Source: Escherichia coli (GTDB taxonomy: Bacteria > Pseudomonadota > Gammaproteobacteria > Enterobacterales > Enterobacteriaceae). Taken from it: DNA of 64,000 bases. Positions 17,087 through 33,189 of this stretch are shown here, one piece after another (position 1 is the stretch's first letter; every line of letters starts with the position of its first letter). The DNA lies in NCBI RefSeq assembly GCF_016026235.1, contig NZ_CP065613.1; one strand, given 5' to 3'. The position numbers and the translations under genes are program-made. The notes under the pieces are model-generated. The model did no database searches. It had not been told where the DNA came from and saw only the letters and a list, made by a program, of their open reading frames with translations.

Positions 17087-18055
<969 letters not shown>

Positions 18056-18410
18056 GGGTGTTATTTTCAAAAATATCACTACCCGCGACAGGGAAATAAT
18101 TCCCGCCAAATAGCTTTTTATCACGCAAATATTTTGTGGTGATCTACACTGATACTCTGTTGCATTATTCGCCTGAAACCACAATATTCAGGCGTTTTTT
18201 CGCTATCTTTGACAAAAAATATCAACTTTTCTCGATTTGCTCTCAGCCCTTATATCATGGGAAATTCCGGCGATTTGCTCACATCAATATTCATGCCACA
18301 TTTGCCCTCAGGGGTTGCCTCAGATTCTCAGTATGTTAGGGTAGAAAAAAGTGACTATTTCCATTGGGTAATGTATCGACATAAACAAATAACAGGAATC
18401 TTTCTATTGC

Positions 18411-19613
18411 ATGGCAATTAAATTAGAAATTAAAAATCTTTATAAAATATTTGGTGAGCATCCACAGCGAGCTTTCAAATATATCGAACAAGGACTTTCA
18501 AAAGAACAAATTCTGGAAAAAACTGGGCTATCGCTTGGCGTAAAAGACGCCAGTCTGGCCATTGAAGAAGGCGAGATATTTGTCATCATGGGATTATCCG
18601 GTTCGGGTAAATCCACAATGGTACGCCTTCTCAATCGCCTGATTGAACCCACCCGCGGGCAAGTGCTGATTGATGGTGTGGATATTGCCAAAATATCCGA
18701 CGCCGAACTCCGTGAGGTGCGCAGAAAAAAGATTGCGATGGTCTTCCAGTCCTTTGCCTTAATGCCGCATATGACCGTGCTGGACAATACTGCGTTCGGT
18801 ATGGAATTGGCCGGAATTAATGCCGAAGAACGCCGGGAAAAAGCCCTTGATGCACTGCGTCAGGTCGGGCTGGAAAATTATGCCCACAGCTACCCGGATG
18901 AACTCTCTGGCGGGATGCGTCAACGTGTGGGATTAGCCCGCGCGTTAGCGATTAATCCGGATATATTATTAATGGACGAAGCCTTCTCGGCGCTCGATCC
19001 ATTAATTCGCACCGAGATGCAGGATGAACTGGTAAAATTACAGGCGAAACATCAGCGCACCATTGTCTTTATTTCCCACGATCTCGATGAAGCCATGCGT
19101 ATTGGCGACCGAATTGCCATTATGCAAAATGGTGAAGTGGTACAAGTCGGCACACCGGATGAAATTCTCAATAATCCGGCGAATGATTATGTCCGTACCT
19201 TCTTCCGTGGCGTCGATATTAGTCAGGTATTCAGTGCGAAAGATATTGCCCGTCGTACACCGAACGGCTTAATTCGTAAAACTCCTGGCTTCGGCCCACG
19301 TTCGGCACTGAAATTATTGCAGGATGAAGATCGTGAATATGGCTACGTTATCGAACGCGGTAATAAGTTTGTCGGCGCAGTCTCCATCGATTCGCTTAAA
19401 ACCGCGTTAACGCAGCAGCAAGGTCTTGATGCGGCGCTGATTGATGCGCCGTTAGCAGTCGATGCACAAACGCCTCTTAGCGAGTTGCTCTCTCATGTCG
19501 GACAGGCACCCTGTGCAGTGCCCGTGGTCGACGAGGACCAACAGTATGTCGGCATCATTTCGAAAGGAATGCTGCTGCGCGCTTTAGATCGTGAGGGGGT
19601 AAATAATGGCTGA
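18411..19613 (+). CDS. proV: Glycine betaine/proline ABC transporter, ATPase subunit
   Basis: 400-aa ORF with Walker A (GLSGSGKST), ABC signature (LSGGMRQR) and C-terminal CBS region. Confidence 0.95.
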
Positions 19614-20670
19614 TCAAAATAATCCGTGGGATACCACGCCAGCGGCGGACAGTGCCGCGCAATCCGCAGACGCCTGGGGTACACCGACGACTGCACCGAC
19701 TGACGGCGGTGGTGCTGACTGGCTGACCAGTACGCCTGCGCCAAACGTCGAGCATTTTAATATTCTCGATCCGTTCCATAAAACGCTGATCCCACTCGAC
19801 AGTTGGGTCACTGAAGGGATCGACTGGGTCGTTACCCATTTCCGTCCCGTCTTCCAGGGCGTGCGCGTTCCGGTTGATTATATCCTCAACGGTTTCCAGC
19901 AATTGCTGCTGGGTATGCCCGCACCGGTGGCGATTATCGTTTTCGCTCTCATCGCCTGGCAGATTTCCGGGGTCGGAATGGGTGTGGCGACGCTGGTTTC
20001 GCTGATTGCCATCGGCGCAATCGGTGCCTGGTCGCAGGCAATGGTGACTCTGGCGCTGGTGTTAACCGCCCTGCTGTTCTGTATCGTCATCGGTTTGCCG
20101 TTGGGGATCTGGCTGGCGAGAAGTCCGCGAGCGGCGAAAATTATTCGTCCACTGCTTGATGCCATGCAGACCACGCCAGCGTTTGTTTATCTGGTGCCAA
20201 TCGTCATGCTATTTGGTATCGGTAACGTGCCGGGCGTGGTGGTGACGATCATCTTTGCTCTGCCGCCGATTATCCGTCTGACCATTCTGGGGATTAACCA
20301 GGTTCCGGCGGATCTGATTGAAGCCTCGCGCTCATTCGGTGCCAGCCCGCGCCAGATGCTGTTCAAAGTTCAGTTACCGCTGGCGATGCCGACCATTATG
20401 GCGGGCGTTAACCAGACGCTGATGCTGGCCCTTTCTATGGTGGTCATCGCCTCGATGATTGCCGTCGGCGGGCTGGGTCAGATGGTACTTCGTGGTATCG
20501 GTCGTCTGGATATGGGGCTTGCCACCGTTGGCGGCGTCGGGATTGTGATCCTCGCCATTATCCTCGATCGCCTGACGCAGGCCGTTGGGCGCGACTCACG
20601 CAGTCGCGGCAACCGTCGCTGGTACACCACTGGCCCTGTCGGTCTGCTGACCCGCCCATTCATTAAGTAA
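19606..20670 (+). CDS. proW: Glycine betaine/proline ABC transporter, permease
   Basis: 354-aa membrane ORF overlapping proV by 8 bp. Confidence 0.95.
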
Positions 20671-20726
20671 CTCTGCACTTGCCCGGTGACGCCGGGCATA
20701 TCACCCTGCCAAAAAAAGGAATAACA

Positions 20727-21719
20727 ATGCGACATAGCGTACTTTTTGCGACAGCGTTTGCCACGCTTATCTCTACACAAACTTTTGCTGCCGATCTGCT
20801 GGGCAAAGGCATTACTGTTAATCCAGTTCAAAGCACCATCACCGAAGAAACCTTCCAGACACTGCTGGTCAGTCGTGCGCTGGAGAAATTAGGTTATACC
20901 GTCAATAAACCCAGCGAAGTGGATTACAACGTTGGCTACACCTCGCTTGCTTCCGGCGATGCAACCTTCACCGCCGTGAACTGGACGCCACTGCATGACA
21001 ACATGTACGAAGCTGCCGGTGGCGATAAGAAATTTTATCGTGAAGGGGTATTTGTTAACGGCGCGGCACAGGGTTACCTGATCGATAAGAAAACCGCCGA
21101 CCAGTACAAAATCACCAACATCGCACAACTAAAAGATCCGAAGATCGCCAAACTGTTCGATACCAACGGCGACGGCAAAGCGGATTTGACTGGCTGTAAC
21201 CCTGGCTGGGGCTGCGAAGGTGCGATCAACCACCAGCTTGCCGCGTATGAACTGACCAATACCGTGACGCATAATCAGGGGAACTACGCAGCGATGATGG
21301 CTGACACCATCAGTCGCTACAAAGAGGGCAAACCGGTGTTTTACTACACCTGGACGCCGTACTGGGTGAGTAATGAGCTGAAGCCAGGGAAAGATGTGGT
21401 CTGGTTGCAGGTGCCGTTCTCTGCACTGCCGGGCGATAAAAATGCCGATACCAAACTGCCGAATGGCGCGAATTACGGCTTCCCGGTCAGCACCATGCAT
21501 ATCGTTGCCAATAAAGCCTGGGCCGAGAAAAACCCGGCAGCAGCGAAACTGTTTGCCATTATGCAGTTGCCAGTGGCAGATATTAACGCCCAGAACGCCA
21601 TTATGCATGACGGCAAAGCCTCAGAAGGCGATATTCAGGGCCACGTTGATGGCTGGATCAAAGCCCACCAGCAGCAGTTCGATGGCTGGGTGAATGAGGC
21701 GCTGGCAGCGCAGAAGTAA
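20727..21719 (+). CDS. proX: Glycine betaine/proline ABC transporter, periplasmic binding protein
   Basis: 330-aa ORF from [21 protein letters not shown] (signal peptide); tracked ORF begins upstream at 20679. Confidence 0.9.
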
Positions 21720-21830
21720 TTTTTATTCGGGCGGATAAGGCGTTTTCGCCGCATCCGCCGCTCTGTACACAATGCCTGATGCGACGCTGGCGCGTCTTAT
21801 CATGCCTACAAACCACACCGCACATTTCAA
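21720..21830. repeat. REP/BIME element downstream of proX
   Basis: gcggataaggcg...cgccgcatccgcc and gcctgatgcgacgctggcgcgtcttatcatgcctac palindromic units. Confidence 0.8.
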
Positions 21831-21896
21831 CTGATCTTACCCAGCAATAGTGGACACGCGGCTAAGTGAGTAAACTCTCAGTCAGAGGTGACTCAC

Positions 21897-22196
21897 ATGA
21901 CAAAAACAGTATCAACCAGTAAAAAACCCCGTAAACAGCATTCGCCTGAATTTCGCAGTGAAGCCCTGAAGCTTGCTGAACGCATCGGTGTTACTGCCGC
22001 AGCCCGTGAACTCAGCCTGTATGAATCACAGCTCTACAACTGGCGCAGTAAACAGCAAAATCAGCAGACGTCTTCTGAACGTGAACTGGAGATGTCTACC
22101 GAGATTGCACGTCTCAAACGCCAGCTGGCAGAACGGGATGAAGAGCTGGCTATCCTCCAAAAGGCCGCGACATACTTCGCGAAGCGCCTGAAATGA
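21897..22196 (+). CDS. insE: IS3 OrfA (InsE), HTH DNA-binding transposase N-terminal part
   Basis: 99-aa [32 protein letters not shown]... Confidence 0.9.
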
Positions 22197-23059
22197 AGTA
22201 TGTCTTTATTGAAAAACATCAGGCTGAGTTCAGCATCAAAGCAATGTGCCGCGTGCTCCGGGTGGCCCGCAGCGGCTGGTATACGTGGTGTCAGCGGCGG
22301 ACAAGGATAAGCACGCGTCAGCAGTTCCGCCAACACTGCGACAGCGTTGTCCTCGCGGCTTTTACCCGGTCAAAACAGCGTTACGGTGCCCCACGCCTGA
22401 CGGATGAACTGCGTGCTCAGGGTTACCCCTTTAACGTAAAAACCGTGGCGGCAAGCCTGCGCCGTCAGGGACTGAGGGCAAAGGCCTCCCGGAAGTTCAG
22501 CCCGGTCAGCTACCGCGCACACGGCCTGCCTGTGTCAGAAAATCTGTTGGAGCAGGATTTTTACGCCAGTGGCCCGAACCAGAAGTGGGCAGGAGACATC
22601 ACGTACTTACGTACAGATGAAGGCTGGCTGTATCTGGCAGTGGTCATTGACCTGTGGTCACGTGCCGTTATTGGCTGGTCAATGTCGCCACGCATGACGG
22701 CGCAACTGGCCTGCGATGCCCTGCAGATGGCGCTGTGGCGGCGTAAGAGGCCCCGGAACGTTATCGTTCACACGGACCGTGGAGGCCAGTACTGTTCAGC
22801 AGATTATCAGGCGCAACTGAAGCGGCATAATCTGCGTGGAAGTATGAGCGCAAAAGGTTGCTGCTACGATAATGCCTGCGTGGAAAGCTTCTTTCATTCG
22901 CTGAAAGTGGAATGTATCCATGGAGAACACTTTATCAGCTGGGAAATAATGCGGGCAACGGTGTTTAATTATATCGAATGTGATTACAATCGGTGGCGGC
23001 GGCACAGTTGGTGTGGCGGCCTCAGTCCGGAACAATTTGAAAACCAGAACCTCGCTTAG
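22193..23059 (+). CDS. insF: IS3 OrfB (InsF), DDE transposase catalytic domain
   Basis: 288-aa ORF in the -1 frame relative to OrfA, overlapping it by 4 bp, as expected for a programmed -1 frameshift OrfAB fusion. Confidence 0.9.
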
Positions 23060-23171
23060 GCCTGTGTCCATATTACGTGGGTAGGATCACAACAAGCTAT
23101 CTTTCGCCCCCATTCATAAACATCCGCTATTATTGATTTCCAGCTTAATCATCACCTGATAAACAAAAATA

Positions 23172-24356
23172 ATGACTAAACCCACTCATGAGCTTAGCCC
23201 GGCGCTGATCGTGCTGATGTCGATCGCCACCGGTCTGGCGGTCGCCAGCAACTATTACGCCCAACCGCTGCTCGACACTATTGCGCGTAACTTTTCCCTC
23301 TCCGCCAGTTCGGCGGGCTTTATTGTTACCGCCGCGCAGTTGGGCTATGCCGCAGGTCTACTGTTTCTTGTTCCCCTCGGTGATATGTTTGAACGCCGCC
23401 GCCTGATTGTCTCGATGACCTTACTGGCAGCGGGCGGTATGTTAATCACTGCCAGCAGTCAGTCACTGGCGATGATGATCCTCGGTACGGCATTAACCGG
23501 TTTATTCTCAGTCGTGGCACAAATTCTGGTTCCGCTGGCAGCGACGCTGGCTTCACCGGATAAACGCGGCAAAGTGGTTGGCACCATTATGAGCGGTCTG
23601 CTGTTGGGGATATTGCTGGCACGAACCGTTGCCGGGTTACTGGCAAACCTCGGCGGCTGGCGCACCGTCTTTTGGGTTGCCTCGGTGTTAATGGCTCTGA
23701 TGGCGCTAGCATTATGGCGTGGTCTGCCACAAATGAAATCAGAAACCCACCTCAACTACCCACAGTTGTTGGGTTCCGTTTTCAGCATGTTTATCAACGA
23801 TAAGATCCTGCGCACCCGCGCATTGCTGGGCTGCCTGACTTTTGCCAACTTCAGCATTCTCTGGACCTCGATGGCCTTTTTGCTTGCCGCTCCACCTTTT
23901 AACTACAGCGATGGCGTAATTGGTCTGTTTGGACTTGCGGGAGCTGCCGGAGCGTTGGGCGCTCGTCCGGCGGGCGGTTTTGCCGACAAGGGCAAATCGC
24001 ACCACACCACAACATTCGGTCTGCTTCTGCTGTTACTTTCATGGCTGGCAATCTGGTTTGGTCACACTTCCGTACTGGCGTTGATTATCGGCATTCTGGT
24101 GCTGGACCTCACCGTACAGGGCGTGCATATCACTAACCAGACGGTAATTTATCGAATACATCCTGATGCGCGTAATCGCCTGACCGCAGGTTACATGACC
24201 AGCTACTTTATTGGCGGTGCCGCCGGTTCGCTAATTTCAGCCTCAGCCTGGCAACATGGCGGTTGGGCTGGCGTTTGTCTGGCTGGCGCGACGATTGCCC
24301 TGGTTAACTTACTGGTCTGGTGGCGAGGTTTTCATCGTCAGGAATCCGCAAATTAA
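23172..24356 (+). CDS. ygaY: MFS-family transporter (uninterrupted)
   Basis: 394-aa ORF with about 12 predicted hydrophobic segments; sits where K-12 carries the split ygaX/ygaY pseudogene, as I recall. Confidence 0.75.
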   Translation: MTKPTHELSPALIVLMSIATGLAVASNYYAQPLLDTIARNFSLSASSAGFIVTAAQLGYAAGLLFLVPLGDMFERRRLIVSMTLLAAGGMLITASSQSLAMMILGTALTGLFSVVAQILVPLAATLASPDKRGKVVGTIMSGLLLGILLARTVAGLLANLGGWRTVFWVASVLMALMALALWRGLPQMKSETHLNYPQLLGSVFSMFINDKILRTRALLGCLTFANFSILWTSMAFLLAAPPFNYSDGVIGLFGLAGAAGALGARPAGGFADKGKSHHTTTFGLLLLLLSWLAIWFGHTSVLALIIGILVLDLTVQGVHITNQTVIYRIHPDARNRLTAGYMTSYFIGGAAGSLISASAWQHGGWAGVCLAGATIALVNLLVWWRGFHRQESAN

Positions 24357-24479
24357 GCAATCAGCAACCGTTTTCGTGGCTTTACACTTATAAGGGTGTT
24401 AAGAAGCCCATCAGTCTGATAAGGTTAAGATATTCATTCAGTCTATTTATAATATTAACAATCGTTAAGCGTACACTCT

Positions 24480-25217
24480 ATGGAAAGCCCTACTCCACAG
24501 CCTGCTCCTGGTTCGGCGACCTTCATGGAAGGATGCAAAGACAGTTTACCGATTGTTATTAGTTATATTCCGGTGGCCTTTGCGTTCGGTCTGAATGCGA
24601 CCCGTCTGGGATTCTCTCCTCTCGAAAGCGTTTTTTTCTCCTGCATCATTTATGCAGGCGCGAGCCAGTTCGTCATTACCGCGATGCTGGCAGCAGGGAG
24701 TAGTTTGTGGGTTGCTGCACTGACCGTCATGGCAATGGATGTTCGCCATGTTTTGTATGGCCCGTCACTGCGTAGCCGTATTATTCAGCGTCTGCAAAAA
24801 TCGAAAACCGCCCTATGGGCGTTTGGCCTGACGGATGAGGTTTTTGCCGCCGCCACCGCAAAACTGGTACGCAATAATCGCCGCTGGAGCGAGAACTGGA
24901 TGATCGGCATTGCCTTCAGTTCATGGTCATCGTGGGTATTTGGTACGGTAATAGGGGCATTCTCCGGCAGCGGCTTGCTGCAAGGTTATCCCGCCGTTGA
25001 AGCAGCATTAGGTTTTATGCTTCCGGCACTCTTTATGAGTTTCCTGCTCGCCTCTTTCCAGCGCAAACAATCTCTTTGCGTTACCGCAGCGTTAGTTGGT
25101 GCCCTTGCAGGCGTAACGCTATTTTCTATTCCCGTCGCCATTCTGGCAGGCATTGTCTGTGGCTGCCTCACTGCGTTAATCCAGGCATTCTGGCAAGGAG
25201 CGCCCGATGAGCTATGA
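24480..25217 (+). CDS. ygaZ: Branched-chain amino acid (L-valine) exporter subunit, AzlC family
   Basis: 245-aa membrane ORF; overlaps ygaH. Confidence 0.85.
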
Positions 25218-25542
25218 GGTTCTGCTGCTTGGGTTACTGGTTGGCGCGGCGAATTATTGCTTCCGCTATTTGCCGCTGCGCCTGCGTGTGGGTAATGCCC
25301 GCCCAACCAAACGTGGCGCGGTAGGTATTTTGCTCGACACCATTGGCATCGCCTCGATATGCGCTCTGCTGGTTGTCTCTACCGCACCAGAAGTGATGCA
25401 CGATACACGCCGTTTCGTGCCCACGCTGGTCGGCTTCGCGGTACTGGGTGCCAGTTTCTATAAAACACGCAGCATTATCATCCCAACACTGCTTAGTGCG
25501 CTGGCCTATGGGCTCGCCTGGAAAGTGATGGCGATTATATAA
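25207..25542 (+). CDS. ygaH: L-valine exporter small subunit, AzlD family
   Basis: 111-aa hydrophobic ORF overlapping ygaZ by 11 bp. Confidence 0.85.
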
Positions 25543-25632
25543 CCCACAAGAATCATTTTTCTAAAACAATACATTTACTTTATTTGTCACTGTCGTTACT
25601 ATATCGGCTGAAATTAATGAGGTCATACCCAA

Positions 25633-26163
25633 ATGGATAGTTCGTTTACGCCCATTGAACAAATGCTAAAATTTCGCGCCAGCCGCCACGAAGATTTTCC
25701 TTATCAGGAGATCCTTCTGACTCGTCTTTGCATGCACATGCAAAGCAAGCTGCTGGAGAACCGCAATAAAATGCTGAAGGCTCAGGGGATTAACGAGACG
25801 TTGTTTATGGCGTTGATTACGCTGGAGTCTCAGGAAAACCACAGTATTCAGCCTTCTGAATTAAGTTGTGCTCTTGGATCATCCCGTACCAACGCGACGC
25901 GTATTGCCGATGAACTGGAAAAACGCGGTTGGATCGAACGTCGTGAAAGCGATAACGATCGCCGCTGCCTGCATCTGCAATTAACGGAAAAAGGTCACGA
26001 GTTTTTGCGCGAGGTTTTACCACCGCAGCATAACTGCCTGCATCAACTCTGGTCCGCGCTCAGCACAACAGAAAAAGATCAGCTCGAGCAAATCACCCGC
26101 AAATTGCTCTCCCGTCTCGACCAGATGGAACAAGACGGTGTGGTTCTCGAAGCGATGAGCTAA
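25633..26163 (+). CDS. mprA: MarR-family repressor MprA/EmrR
   Basis: 176-aa [35 protein letters not shown]...; precedes emrAB. Confidence 0.95.
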
Positions 26164-26210
26164 CGCGCATCTCGCTCAAAAATCCAGATTTATAAAAGAA
26201 AAAATGACTG

Positions 26211-26240
26211 GCCAGCATCGCAACATGCTGGCCTTTTTGG
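26211..26240 (+). terminator. Intra-operon hairpin with T-run between mprA and emrA (candidate attenuator)
   Basis: gccagcat-cgcaac-atgctggc followed by ctttttgg. Confidence 0.55.
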
Positions 26241-26288
26241 CAAGCAGGTCGGCTCAGCCGATGAGTTAAGAAGATCGTGGAGAACAAT

Positions 26289-27461
26289 ATGAGCGCAAAT
26301 GCGGAGACTCAAACCCCGCAGCAACCGGTAAAGAAGAGCGGCAAACGTAAGCGTCTGCTCCTCCTTCTCACCTTGCTCTTTATAATTATTGCCGTAGCGA
26401 TAGGGATTTATTGGTTTTTGGTACTGCGTCACTTCGAAGAAACCGATGACGCATACGTGGCAGGGAATCAAATTCAAATTATGTCTCAGGTGTCTGGCAG
26501 CGTGACGAAAGTCTGGGCCGATAACACCGATTTTGTAAAAGAAGGCGACGTGCTGGTCACTCTCGACCCGACAGATGCTCGCCAGGCGTTTGAAAAAGCC
26601 AAAACTGCACTGGCTTCCAGCGTTCGCCAAACCCACCAGCTGATGATTAACAGCAAACAGTTGCAGGCGAATATTGAGGTGCAAAAAATCGCCCTCGCGA
26701 AAGCACAAAGCGACTACAACCGCCGTGTGCCGCTGGGCAATGCCAACCTGATTGGTCGCGAAGAGCTGCAACACGCCCGCGACGCCGTTACCAGTGCCCA
26801 GGCGCAACTGGACGTCGCGATTCAACAATACAATGCCAATCAGGCGATGATTCTGGGGACTAAACTGGAAGATCAGCCTGCCGTGCAACAGGCTGCCACC
26901 GAAGTACGTAACGCCTGGCTGGCGCTGGAGCGTACTCGTATTGTCAGTCCGATGACCGGTTATGTCTCCCGCCGCGCGGTACAGCCTGGGGCGCAAATTA
27001 GCCCAACGACGCCGCTGATGGCGGTCGTTCCAGCCACCAATATGTGGGTGGATGCCAACTTTAAAGAGACGCAGATTGCCAATATGCGCATCGGTCAGCC
27101 GGTCACTATCACCACCGATATTTACGGCGATGATGTGAAATACACCGGTAAAGTGGTTGGTCTGGATATGGGCACAGGTAGCGCGTTCTCACTGCTTCCG
27201 GCGCAAAATGCGACCGGTAACTGGATCAAAGTCGTTCAGCGTCTGCCTGTGCGTATCGAACTGGACCAGAAACAGCTGGAGCAATACCCGCTGCGTATCG
27301 GTTTATCCACGCTGGTGAGCGTCAATACCACTAATCGTGACGGTCAGGTACTGGCAAATAAAGTACGTTCCACTCCGGTAGCGGTAAGCACCGCGCGTGA
27401 AATCAGCCTGGCACCTGTCAATAAACTGATCGACGATATCGTAAAAGCTAACGCTGGCTAA
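26289..27461 (+). CDS. emrA: Multidrug efflux membrane fusion protein EmrA
   Basis: 390-aa ORF from MSANAETQTPQQP...; N-terminal transmembrane anchor and coiled-coil region. Confidence 0.95.
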   Translation: MSANAETQTPQQPVKKSGKRKRLLLLLTLLFIIIAVAIGIYWFLVLRHFEETDDAYVAGNQIQIMSQVSGSVTKVWADNTDFVKEGDVLVTLDPTDARQAFEKAKTALASSVRQTHQLMINSKQLQANIEVQKIALAKAQSDYNRRVPLGNANLIGREELQHARDAVTSAQAQLDVAIQQYNANQAMILGTKLEDQPAVQQAATEVRNAWLALERTRIVSPMTGYVSRRAVQPGAQISPTTPLMAVVPATNMWVDANFKETQIANMRIGQPVTITTDIYGDDVKYTGKVVGLDMGTGSAFSLLPAQNATGNWIKVVQRLPVRIELDQKQLEQYPLRIGLSTLVSVNTTNRDGQVLANKVRSTPVAVSTAREISLAPVNKLIDDIVKANAG

Positions 27462-27477
27462 TCCAGAGGTGCGTGTG

Positions 27478-29016
27478 ATGCAACAGCAAAAACCGCTGGA
27501 AGGCGCGCAACTGGTCATTATGACGATTGCGCTGTCACTGGCGACATTCATGCAGGTGCTGGACTCCACCATTGCTAACGTGGCGATCCCCACTATCGCC
27601 GGGAATCTGGGCTCATCGCTCAGCCAGGGAACGTGGGTAATCACTTCTTTCGGGGTGGCGAATGCCATCTCGATCCCGCTTACCGGCTGGCTGGCAAAGC
27701 GCGTCGGGGAAGTGAAACTGTTCCTCTGGTCAACCATCGCCTTTGCTATTGCGTCGTGGGCGTGTGGTGTCTCCAGCAGCCTGAATATGCTGATCTTCTT
27801 CCGCGTGATTCAGGGGATTGTCGCCGGGCCGTTAATTCCGCTTTCGCAAAGTCTATTGCTGAATAACTACCCGCCAGCCAAACGCTCGATCGCGCTGGCG
27901 TTGTGGTCGATGACGGTGATTGTCGCGCCAATTTGCGGCCCGATCCTCGGCGGATATATCAGCGATAATTACCACTGGGGCTGGATATTCTTCATCAACG
28001 TGCCGATTGGCGTGGCGGTGGTGTTGATGACACTGCAAACTCTGCGCGGACGTGAAACCCGCACCGAACGGCGGCGGATTGATGCCGTGGGGCTGGCACT
28101 GCTGGTTATTGGTATCGGCAGCCTGCAGATTATGCTCGACCGCGGTAAAGAGCTGGACTGGTTTTCATCACAGGAAATTATCATCCTTACCGTGGTGGCG
28201 GTGGTGGCTATCTGCTTCCTGATTGTCTGGGAGCTGACCGACGATAACCCGATAGTCGATCTGTCGTTGTTTAAGTCGCGCAACTTCACCATCGGCTGCT
28301 TGTGTATCAGCCTCGCGTATATGCTCTACTTCGGCGCTATTGTTCTGCTGCCGCAGTTGTTGCAGGAGGTCTACGGTTACACGGCAACGTGGGCAGGTCT
28401 GGCCTCTGCGCCGGTAGGGATTATTCCGGTGATCCTGTCGCCGATTATCGGCCGCTTCGCGCATAAACTGGATATGCGGCGGCTGGTAACCTTCAGCTTT
28501 ATTATGTATGCCGTCTGCTTCTACTGGCGTGCCTATACCTTTGAACCGGGTATGGATTTTGGCGCGTCGGCCTGGCCGCAGTTTATCCAGGGGTTTGCGG
28601 TGGCCTGCTTCTTTATGCCGCTGACCACCATTACGCTGTCTGGTTTGCCACCGGAACGACTGGCGGCGGCATCGAGCCTCTCCAACTTTACGCGAACGCT
28701 GGCGGGGTCTATTGGCACGTCGATAACCACGACCATGTGGACCAACCGCGAGTCGATGCACCATGCGCAGTTGACTGAGTCGGTAAACCCGTTCAACCCG
28801 AATGCCCAGGCGATGTACAGTCAACTGGAAGGGCTTGGGATGACACAACAGCAGGCATCAGGCTGGATTGCCCAGCAGATCACCAATCAGGGGCTGATTA
28901 TTTCCGCAAATGAGATCTTCTGGATGTCAGCCGGGATATTCCTCGTCTTGCTGGGGCTGGTGTGGTTTGCTAAACCGCCCTTTGGCGCAGGTGGCGGCGG
29001 AGGCGGTGCGCACTAA
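27478..29016 (+). CDS. emrB: Multidrug efflux MFS pump EmrB
   Basis: 512-aa 14-TMS-type ORF from MQQQKPLEGAQL... with poly-Gly C-terminus. Confidence 0.95.
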   Translation: MQQQKPLEGAQLVIMTIALSLATFMQVLDSTIANVAIPTIAGNLGSSLSQGTWVITSFGVANAISIPLTGWLAKRVGEVKLFLWSTIAFAIASWACGVSSSLNMLIFFRVIQGIVAGPLIPLSQSLLLNNYPPAKRSIALALWSMTVIVAPICGPILGGYISDNYHWGWIFFINVPIGVAVVLMTLQTLRGRETRTERRRIDAVGLALLVIGIGSLQIMLDRGKELDWFSSQEIIILTVVAVVAICFLIVWELTDDNPIVDLSLFKSRNFTIGCLCISLAYMLYFGAIVLLPQLLQEVYGYTATWAGLASAPVGIIPVILSPIIGRFAHKLDMRRLVTFSFIMYAVCFYWRAYTFEPGMDFGASAWPQFIQGFAVACFFMPLTTITLSGLPPERLAAASSLSNFTRTLAGSIGTSITTTMWTNRESMHHAQLTESVNPFNPNAQAMYSQLEGLGMTQQQASGWIAQQITNQGLIISANEIFWMSAGIFLVLLGLVWFAKPPFGAGGGGGGAH

Positions 29017-29025
29017 GTACAACTA

Positions 29026-29052
29026 AGCCAGTTCATTTGAACTGGCTTTTTT
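29026..29052. terminator. Bidirectional hairpin terminator between convergent emrB and luxS
   Basis: agccagttca-ttt-gaactggct followed by tttttc, with A-rich run on the other side. Confidence 0.75.
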
Positions 29053-29079
29053 CAATTAATTGTGAAGATAGTTTACTGA

Positions 29080-29595
29080 CTAAATGTGCAGTTCCTGCAA
29101 CTTCTCTTTCGGCAGCGCCAGTTCTTCGTTGCTGTTGATGCGCACGTCACGTTCCAGAATGCTACGCGCAATATCCTGCGCTTCCTGCAACGAGTGCATC
29201 TGGTAAGTGCCACACTGGTAGACGTTCAGTTCCGGGATCTGATTCTGATCCTGCACTTTCAGCACGTCTTCCATTGCCGCTTTCCAGGCATCAGCAACAC
29301 GCTGCTCATCTGGCGTACCAATCAGACTCATATAAAAACCGGTGCGGCAGCCCATTGGCGAGATATCGATAATCTCTACACCATTACCGTTAAGATGGTT
29401 ACGCATAAAACCAGCAAACAGGTGCTCCAGGGTATGGATCCCTCTTTCTGGCATCACTTCTTTGTTCGGCACGCAGAAGCGCAGATCGAACACGGTGATT
29501 GCGTCGCCATGCGGGGTGTTCATTGTTTTCGCCACCCGAACTGCAGGCGCTTCCATCCGGGTATGATCGACTGTGAAGCTATCTAACAACGGCAT
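29080..29595 (-). CDS. luxS: S-ribosylhomocysteine lyase (autoinducer-2 synthase)
   Basis: 171-aa [26 protein letters not shown]... with HxxEH metal motif. Confidence 0.95.
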
Positions 29596-29663
29596 TTAGC
29601 CACCTCCGGTAATTTTTTTAAAAATTTTCTGAACTCTTTCTTCCCAGGCGAGTCTGAGTATAT

Positions 29664-29735
29664 GAAAGACGCGCATTTGTTATCATCATCCCTGAATTCA
29701 GAGATGAAATTTTGGCCACTCACGAGTGGCCTTTT
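29664..29735 (+). ncRNA. micA: MicA (SraD) Hfq-dependent small RNA
   Basis: gaaagacgcgcatttgttatcatcatccctgaattcagagatgaaattttggccactcacgagtggccttttt matches the MicA sequence as I recall it, including its terminator hairpin; lies between luxS and gshA. Confidence 0.9.
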
Positions 29736-29744
29736 TCTTTTCTG

Positions 29745-31328
<1,584 letters not shown>

Positions 31329-32465: not shown

Positions 32466-32542
32466 TGGTGCATCCGGGAGGATTCGAACCTCCGACCGCT
32501 CGGTTCGTAGCCGAGTACTCTATCCAGCTGAGCTACGGATGC
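32466..32542 (-). tRNA. tRNA-Arg (anticodon ACG)
   Basis: Reverse complement GCATCCGTAGCTCAGCTGGATAGAGTACTCGGCTACGAACCGAGCGGTCGGAGGTTCGAATCCTCCCGGATGCACCA. Confidence 0.95.
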
Positions 32543-32740
32543 ATCGGGAAAATTTATTTTACTGCTGATATTGATATCGCTACTAAAGCCATATCAAGTA
32601 AGAGATGGTGCATCCGAGAGGATTACTCGCCTTGCGGCTCGCCCTTCGGGCCGTTGCTGGCGCAACGTTATCCTCCCTGGTGCCTGCGGTTAATTCCGCT
32701 ACCTCTTCGATATCTTCATTGCTGAAGATTTCGGAGAATA

Positions 32741-32817
32741 TGGTGCATCCGGGAGGATTCGAACCTCCGACCGCTCGGTTCGTAGCCGAGTACTCTATCC
32801 AGCTGAGCTACGGATGC
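32741..32817 (-). tRNA. tRNA-Arg (anticodon ACG)
   Basis: Identical 77-nt tRNA-Arg sequence. Confidence 0.95.
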
Positions 32818-33016
32818 ATCGGGAAACTTACTTTACTGCAGATTTTTTGATACCGCTACTAAAGCCGTATCAAGTAAGAGATGGTGCATCCGGGAGGATT
32901 ACTCGCCTTGCGGCTCGCCCTTCGGGCCGTTGCTAAAGCAACGTTATCCTCCCTAGTGCCTACGGTTAGTACCGCCACCTCTTCCATACCTTCATCGCTG
33001 AAAGTTACGGAGAATA

Positions 33017-33093
33017 TGGTGCATCCGGGAGGATTCGAACCTCCGACCGCTCGGTTCGTAGCCGAGTACTCTATCCAGCTGAGCTACGGATGC
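33017..33093 (-). tRNA. tRNA-Arg (anticodon ACG)
   Basis: Identical 77-nt tRNA-Arg sequence. Confidence 0.95.
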
Positions 33094-33096
33094 AAA

Positions 33097-33189
33097 TGGC
33101 GGTGAGGCGGGGATTCGAACCCCGGATGCAGCTTTTGACCGCATACTCCCTTAGCAGGGGAGCGCCTTCAGCCTCTCGGCCACCTCACC
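33097..33189 (-). tRNA. serV: tRNA-Ser (anticodon GCU)
   Basis: Reverse complement GGTGAGGTGGCCGAGAGGCTGAAGGCGCTCCCCTGCTAAGGGAGTATGCGGTCAAAAGCTGCATCCGGGGTTCGAATCCCCGCCTCACCGCCA with long variable arm. Confidence 0.95.

Follow-up and report, generated by a model that had tools for sequence, protein, structure and literature searches.

The open reading frame at 23172–24356 of the window (the whole 64,000-nucleotide stretch of Escherichia coli contig NZ_CP065613.1 analysed here) very probably represents the intact, ancestral allele of ygaY, a core gene of Escherichia that is disrupted in K-12. The gene is known and already annotated, and its intact form is the ordinary wild type: it is the norm in E. 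coli, and K-12 is the exception. In the window, ygaY lies downstream of proV, proW and proX and upstream of ygaZ, ygaH, emrR/mprA, emrA and emrB. The features of the locus that bear on its identity are as follows.

20726–21719, + strand: proX (glycine betaine-binding protein), collinear with K-12 proX b2679
21729–21806, + strand: REP/BIME unit just 3′ of proX (Rfam RF02564 naRNA4, 73.5 bits against a gathering score of 59.5)
23172–24356, + strand: ygaY, 394 codons plus stop, from ATG to TAA with zero internal stops (ORF listing and sequence)
23426–23435, + strand: site of the K-12 lesion, 7 of these bases being missing in K-12 (pairwise alignment)
24480–25217, + strand: ygaZ (AzlC-type L-valine exporter subunit; ORF listing and K-12 annotation)

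A sequence-only reading of this DNA had described an uninterrupted 394-amino-acid MFS transporter with hydrophobic segments throughout, and both points held. The product scores 139.8 bits against the Pfam family MFS_1 (PF07690; gathering cut-off of 33.4, E = 1.3e-40), so the frame is a real gene and not a chance ORF. Hydrophobic segments extend along the entire length of the protein. An AlphaFold2 model built from 81 diverse homologues (mean pLDDT of 95.2, pTM of 0.93) contains, on our reading of its DSSP helical segments, 12 transmembrane helices at approximately residues 10–40, 45–71, 75–94, 99–126, 132–161 and 163–184 in the first half and 211–239, 247–272, 276–298, 301–329, 331–~360 and ~362–393 in the second, besides an amphipathic linker at residues 196–209. 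YgaY thus has a profile match above the gathering score, twelve transmembrane helices arranged as two bundles of six and a variant of motif A, as expected for an MFS protein. NCBI already holds the exact window protein from 27 contigs as ‘MFS transporter [Escherichia coli]’ (for example, EFK2890147.1).

The same reading had stated that K-12 has a split pseudogene at this position. In MG1655 (NC_000913.3), ygaY (b2681) is indeed annotated as a pseudogene of 1,178 nt at 2808316–2809493, between proX and ygaZ, and the older two-gene name ‘(ygaXY)’, which matches the ygaX/ygaY fragments named in that reading, has been used in the literature (PMC3946193). Pairwise alignment of the window gene with K-12 ygaY gave 95.6% nucleotide identity, with 52 substitutions and a single indel, a 7-nt deletion in K-12 located opposite 23426–23435. 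Several placements of the gap score equally (GGCAGCG, GCAGCGG, CAGCGGG and AGCGGGC) because a GGC triplet flanks it; this 3-nt repeat is consistent with a deletion that may have arisen by slippage or microhomology. The deletion breaks the frame, so K-12 is left with an ORF of 88 amino acids that ends in LLAAC and a stop, and an overlapping ORF of 305 amino acids that starts with MLITASS. An MG1655 frame as uninterrupted as that of the window was looked for in the alignment and was not found. In the protein model, the lesion maps to codons 85–88, inside helix 3 (75–94) and just past motif A. Once the frame is restored, the K-12 protein differs from the window protein at only three residues (T5N, N209S and S392A).

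In K-12 MG1655, the stop of the 88-amino-acid fragment overlaps the ATG of the 305-amino-acid fragment (ATGTTGA; positions 4577–4583 of the extracted locus). Re-initiation would be possible at such an overlap, so both fragments could be made. In published work, a study of proVWX terms ygaY cryptic, and a ygaY deletion in K-12 serves as a pseudogene control or integration site.

Both states were surveyed in complete E. coli genomes. A ygaY match was found in 5,418 of 5,426 genomes and was full length (covering at least 80% of the ygaY query) in 5,413. Among 40 records sampled across the ranking, full-length matches show 94.6–99.9% nucleotide identity over 1,185 nt; the window allele itself has few close relatives, with only 2 of the 5,418 records at least 99% identical. 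The K-12 deletion junction was searched with an 80-nt probe. It matched 354 records at 99% identity or more and none at 95–99%; all other records matched at 80–95% identity, because the 7 nt that K-12 lacks sit within the probed region. The best 60 of these 354 junction-positive records all appear to be laboratory or laboratory-evolved derivatives of K-12, and the records listed include MG1655 and its evolved lines, C600, DH1, DH5alpha, J53, HMS174, RR1 and NCM3722. Among the records examined (the best 60 of 354), the 7-nt deletion is derived and confined to the K-12 laboratory lineage.

Orthologues of 394 amino acids are present in E. fergusonii, E. albertii, E. marmotae, Shigella and Citrobacter, with 93% protein identity in the case of Citrobacter, in which the gene order is identical (nrdEF–proVWX–ygaY–ygaZH–emrR–emrAB). 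The window gene fits this Escherichia/Citrobacter orthologue group, both in its position between proX and ygaZ and in its full-length, high-identity match. An ENA metagenome contig of 5,428 nt encodes a YgaY-like protein of 596 amino acids (73% identity, 1,094 bits), compared with the norm of 394; this protein may represent a partial duplication, a fusion or an assembly artefact.

Substitution patterns show ygaY to have been under strong purifying selection. Between the window and K-12, 49 changes are synonymous and 3 are non-synonymous (dN/dS of 0.019); between the window and Citrobacter, dN is 0.042 and dS is 1.17 (dN/dS of about 0.036). The K-12 frameshift is recent, because the K-12 allele carries no excess of amino-acid changes. 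At synonymous sites, the window has diverged from K-12 by 0.18 in ygaY and by 0.12 in proX, compared with 0.01–0.05 in proV, proW, ygaZ, ygaH and emrA and 0 in mprA. These raised values, with the scarcity of records at least 99% identical to the window allele, suggest either old allelic lineages or recombination at ygaY and proX.

The 64-kb window is collinear with K-12 2786675–2849243, and its sole large insertion is an IS3 element directly upstream of ygaY; the sequence-only reading had noted an adjacent IS3. Smaller differences from K-12 occur elsewhere in the window. Between gabT and gabP (7398–7654), three tandem BIME/REP units match Rfam naRNA4 (RF02564), and the window is about 180 nt longer than K-12 in this region, a copy-number polymorphism. 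A tRNA array at 32466–33189 contains three tRNA-Arg(ACG) genes and tRNA-Ser(GCU); K-12 has four tRNA-Arg(ACG) genes in the same array (argQ, argZ, argY and argV). The components of the insertion are listed below.

21828–21831, unstranded: left target-site duplication, CAAC, 4 nt (K-12 alignment and flanks)
21832–23089, + strand: IS3, 1,258 nt, with TG...CA ends; collinearity with K-12 breaks exactly at these coordinates
21897–22196, + strand: IS3 orfA, HTH_Tnp_1 (Pfam)
22193–23059, + strand: IS3 orfB, HTH_21, rve (DDE integrase) and rve_2, overlapping orfA (Pfam)
23090–23093, unstranded: right target-site duplication, CAAC, 4 nt (K-12 alignment and flanks)

A single CAAC in K-12 (positions 4234–4237 of the extracted locus) aligns to both flanks of the element. 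The element starts with TGATCTTACCC and finishes with GGGTAGGATCA, and 28 of 40 positions agree between its terminal inverted repeats. Its length of about 1.26 kb, TG...CA ends, inverted repeats, orfA and orfB with an rve domain, and short duplication are those of the IS3 family, and the identical copy in NZ_CP065615.1 bears the RefSeq name ‘IS3-like element IS3 family transposase, programmed frameshift’. It starts 25 nt past the REP/BIME unit, is oriented like ygaY and ends 82 nt 5′ of the ATG of that gene. The right junction, searched with a probe, was continuous in only 1 of 5,426 genomes, that of FDAARGOS_943 (NZ_CP065615.1), which is 99.95% identical to window positions 17172–30355 and has its identical IS3 copy at this very position. 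The insertion is a rare, lineage-private event and an unremarkable lineage marker.

The sequence-only reading had taken the intact frame and the neighbouring IS3 together to mark the interval between proX and ygaZ as a strain-variable spot, and this view stands only in part. The spacer between proX and ygaY does occur in two common forms, and divergence is raised in ygaY and proX; however, the gene content is stable and the IS3 junction is almost private. A K-12-like spacer of 191 nt with REP/BIME, which is also the form present in the window, is continuous in 4,864 genomes (about 90%), and a form of 452 nt occurs in 548 genomes (about 10%; for example, positions 1141–1592 of the locus extracted from NZ_CP128875.1). 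The longer form holds an unrelated and unannotated segment of about 350 nt, and the two forms become homologous again some 10 nt 5′ of the IS3 target site. We rejected additional REP/BIME copies as the source of the extra length, as Rfam returned no naRNA4/REP match there; a match of the segment to TwoAYGGAY was sub-threshold (E = 0.028). In about 1,430 other genomes, a relative of the segment (about 210 nt, 83% identical) is found at a different chromosomal site. Deletions at the locus are rare. One example is strain PCP06021 (NZ_CM129877.1, positions 4001–4463 of the extracted locus), in which ygaZ is lost through a deletion that leaves the first ~158 nt of ygaY fused to ygaH.

The position of IS3 raises the question of whether the intact gene is expressed in this lineage. 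Two sequence features are relevant.

23090–23171, + strand: native 5′ region of ygaY between IS3 and the ATG, 82 nt (sequence; alignment with K-12 and Citrobacter)
24425–24453, + strand: promoter-like site of ygaZ, TTAAGA-17-TATAAT, near consensus (consensus scan)

One possibility, which we regard as unlikely, is that IS3 has cut ygaY off from its own promoter or from upstream elements, such that the ORF is intact but silenced and is an incipient pseudogene in this lineage. IS3 ends only 82 nt from the ATG, and a scan of 21600–24600 for promoter and terminator consensus sequences detected no sigma-70-like site in the leader (23090–23171). In K-12, both read-through from proX and chromatin structure influence how much ygaY transcript is present, which suggests that upstream context matters. 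However, a −10-like TATTAT box (23128–23133; TATGAT in the Citrobacter upstream alignment) is kept 38 nt past the end of IS3, and the transposase genes point towards ygaY, so that read-through is possible. The gene also shows no sign of decay, with 1 nt of difference from its closest relative, although little time has elapsed.

The opposite effect, an adaptive up-regulation in which IS3 activates ygaY by transposase read-through or from an outward-facing promoter at its right end, is quite improbable. The element is oriented as ygaY at that short distance from the ATG, it contains two weak promoter-like sites on the + strand of its 3′ part (22804–22831 and 22921–22950), and there are reports of IS3 serving as a mobile promoter. 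However, the three promoter-like sites in the scan equal the number expected from shuffled sequence (2.4 ± 1.5), that is, chance level; no hybrid −35/−10 is evident at the end of IS3; and an insertion present in 1 of 5,426 complete genomes gives no sign of selective spread. With no sigma-70-like promoter detected in the leader, the intact frame is no proof that ygaY is expressed in the strain that bears IS3. Expression of ygaZH should be independent of IS3, because its own TTAAGA-17-TATAAT promoter is intact; the same hexamers are given as a constitutive RpoD promoter for ygaZH between ygaY and ygaZ (PMC3946193).

That ygaY is a dispensable, decaying gene, with the K-12 lesion being one among many and the intact frame functionally meaningless, is highly improbable: no phenotype is known for the loss of the gene in K-12, uses of its deletion treat the locus as neutral, and the ygaY–ygaH fusion in PCP06021 is a second, independent lesion, but full-length ygaY in 5,413 of 5,426 genomes, the low dN/dS both within E. 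coli and against Citrobacter, and the conservation of length and gene order across genera all argue against decay.

Taking ygaY as an intact, ancestral core gene, we considered what its product might transport. At E ≤ 1e-30, the family numbers 1,144 cluster representatives. The loop that joins helices 2 and 3 carries motif A (G-x3-D-R/K-x-G-R-R/K) as the variant P68-L-G70-D71-M-F-E-R75-R76-R77. Among the 81 homologues, P68 is invariant, and G70 is conserved in 74–79, D71 in 79 and R75 in 68; the canonical second glycine is replaced by E, D or N. Further conserved charged residues are R151 (helix 5), D272, D312 (helix 10) and R336, each retained in 73–80 of the 81 homologues. The antiporter motif C (G-x8-G-x3-G-P-x2-G-G), expected in helix 5, is absent: the sequence of this helix is RGKVVGTIMSGLLLGILLARTVAGLLANLG, there is no GP dipeptide anywhere in YgaY, and not one of the 81 homologues has even the relaxed pattern G...GP..G.

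Curated NCBIfam functional families gave no match to YgaY that reaches its cut-off, and the 81 homologues leave this picture unchanged. Among models of the DHA1 family (TC 2.A.1.2), TIGR00710 (Bcr/CflA) scores 51.3 bits against a cut-off of 200.9 and TIGR00880 scores 42.2 against 131. The SotB-like sugar efflux model NF002921, which is the best full-length match, reaches 65 of 401 bits, and NF008654 (EmrD) reaches 37.4 of 479. A sequence search of the PDB gave weak matches only, to GlcP (4e-8, N-terminal half) and to EmrD and SotB (~1e-4). An assignment to the DHA1 antiporters through motif C or the curated models was therefore rejected, given the missing motif and the scores below cut-off. 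What speaks for an exporter or antiporter is overall fold similarity alone, because motif C is missing from 81 of 81 homologues: the best Foldseek matches of the model are SotB (6kkk; TM-scores of 0.84/0.87), then MdfA and NorA, with TM-scores to SotB and MdfA of 0.84–0.87.

On the basis of the model, YgaY would act as a rocker-switch secondary transporter, whose coupling or substrate site is probably made up of R151 (helix 5), D312 (helix 10) and R336. Most likely, proton influx would drive the export of a small solute; this mode is favoured because the fold is closest to those of the DHA1 exporters SotB, MdfA and NorA. Our searches of the literature found no functional study of ygaY or ygaX; the papers retrieved cover the use of the K-12 locus as a pseudogene or integration site, and proVWX chromatin. 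A broader joint reading is speculative, and we consider it improbable as a whole: that the dead K-12 gene hid the role of a widespread MFS subfamily that has no named function and lacks motif C (more than 1,100 representatives, with R151, D312 and R336), that the substrate exported by the intact allele might be a compatible solute or an amino acid linked to proVWX and ygaZH, and that IS3 may have rewired ygaY expression or changed the H-NS bridge reported to link ygaY with the proU downstream element.

The K-12 pseudogene and the intact gene are both on record already, and the significance of the comparison is mostly bookkeeping. Its practical consequence is that the ygaY pseudogene is a peculiarity of a laboratory lineage, whereas natural E. 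coli keep an intact transporter under selection, and that study of the role of YgaY needs a non-K-12 allele such as that of the window. The IS3 insertion provides a handy marker of its lineage, and would offer a natural test of the control of ygaY by upstream context and of the chromatin contact between proU and ygaY.

Among known systems, the closest in structure are SotB (6kkk/6kkl), MdfA (4zp0) and NorA (8tte), which share the 12-helix MFS fold with YgaY at TM-scores of 0.80–0.90 but have just 15–18% sequence identity to it, and YgaY lacks motif C. Full-length sequence similarity is weak and is to SotB-like, Bcr/CflA and Cmx models. The NorA entries among the Foldseek matches are D307N mutants, and YgaY has a conserved acidic residue, D312, which is a lead only. 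The inserted element shares with the IS3 of E. coli its 1,258-nt length, TG...CA ends, imperfect inverted repeats, overlapping orfA and orfB, and short duplication. IS3 usually makes a target duplication of 3 nt; that of the window copy is 4 nt (CAAC), and hardly any other sequenced genome has the element at this site. K-12 MG1655 has ygaY at the same locus, between proX and ygaZ, but without the 7 nt that are intact in the window, and it has no IS3 upstream. The nearest counterpart is FDAARGOS_943, in which the gene differs by 1 nt and its product (WP_060616190.1, ‘MFS transporter’) by one residue (S392A) from those of the window; the two are the same gene in the same lineage.
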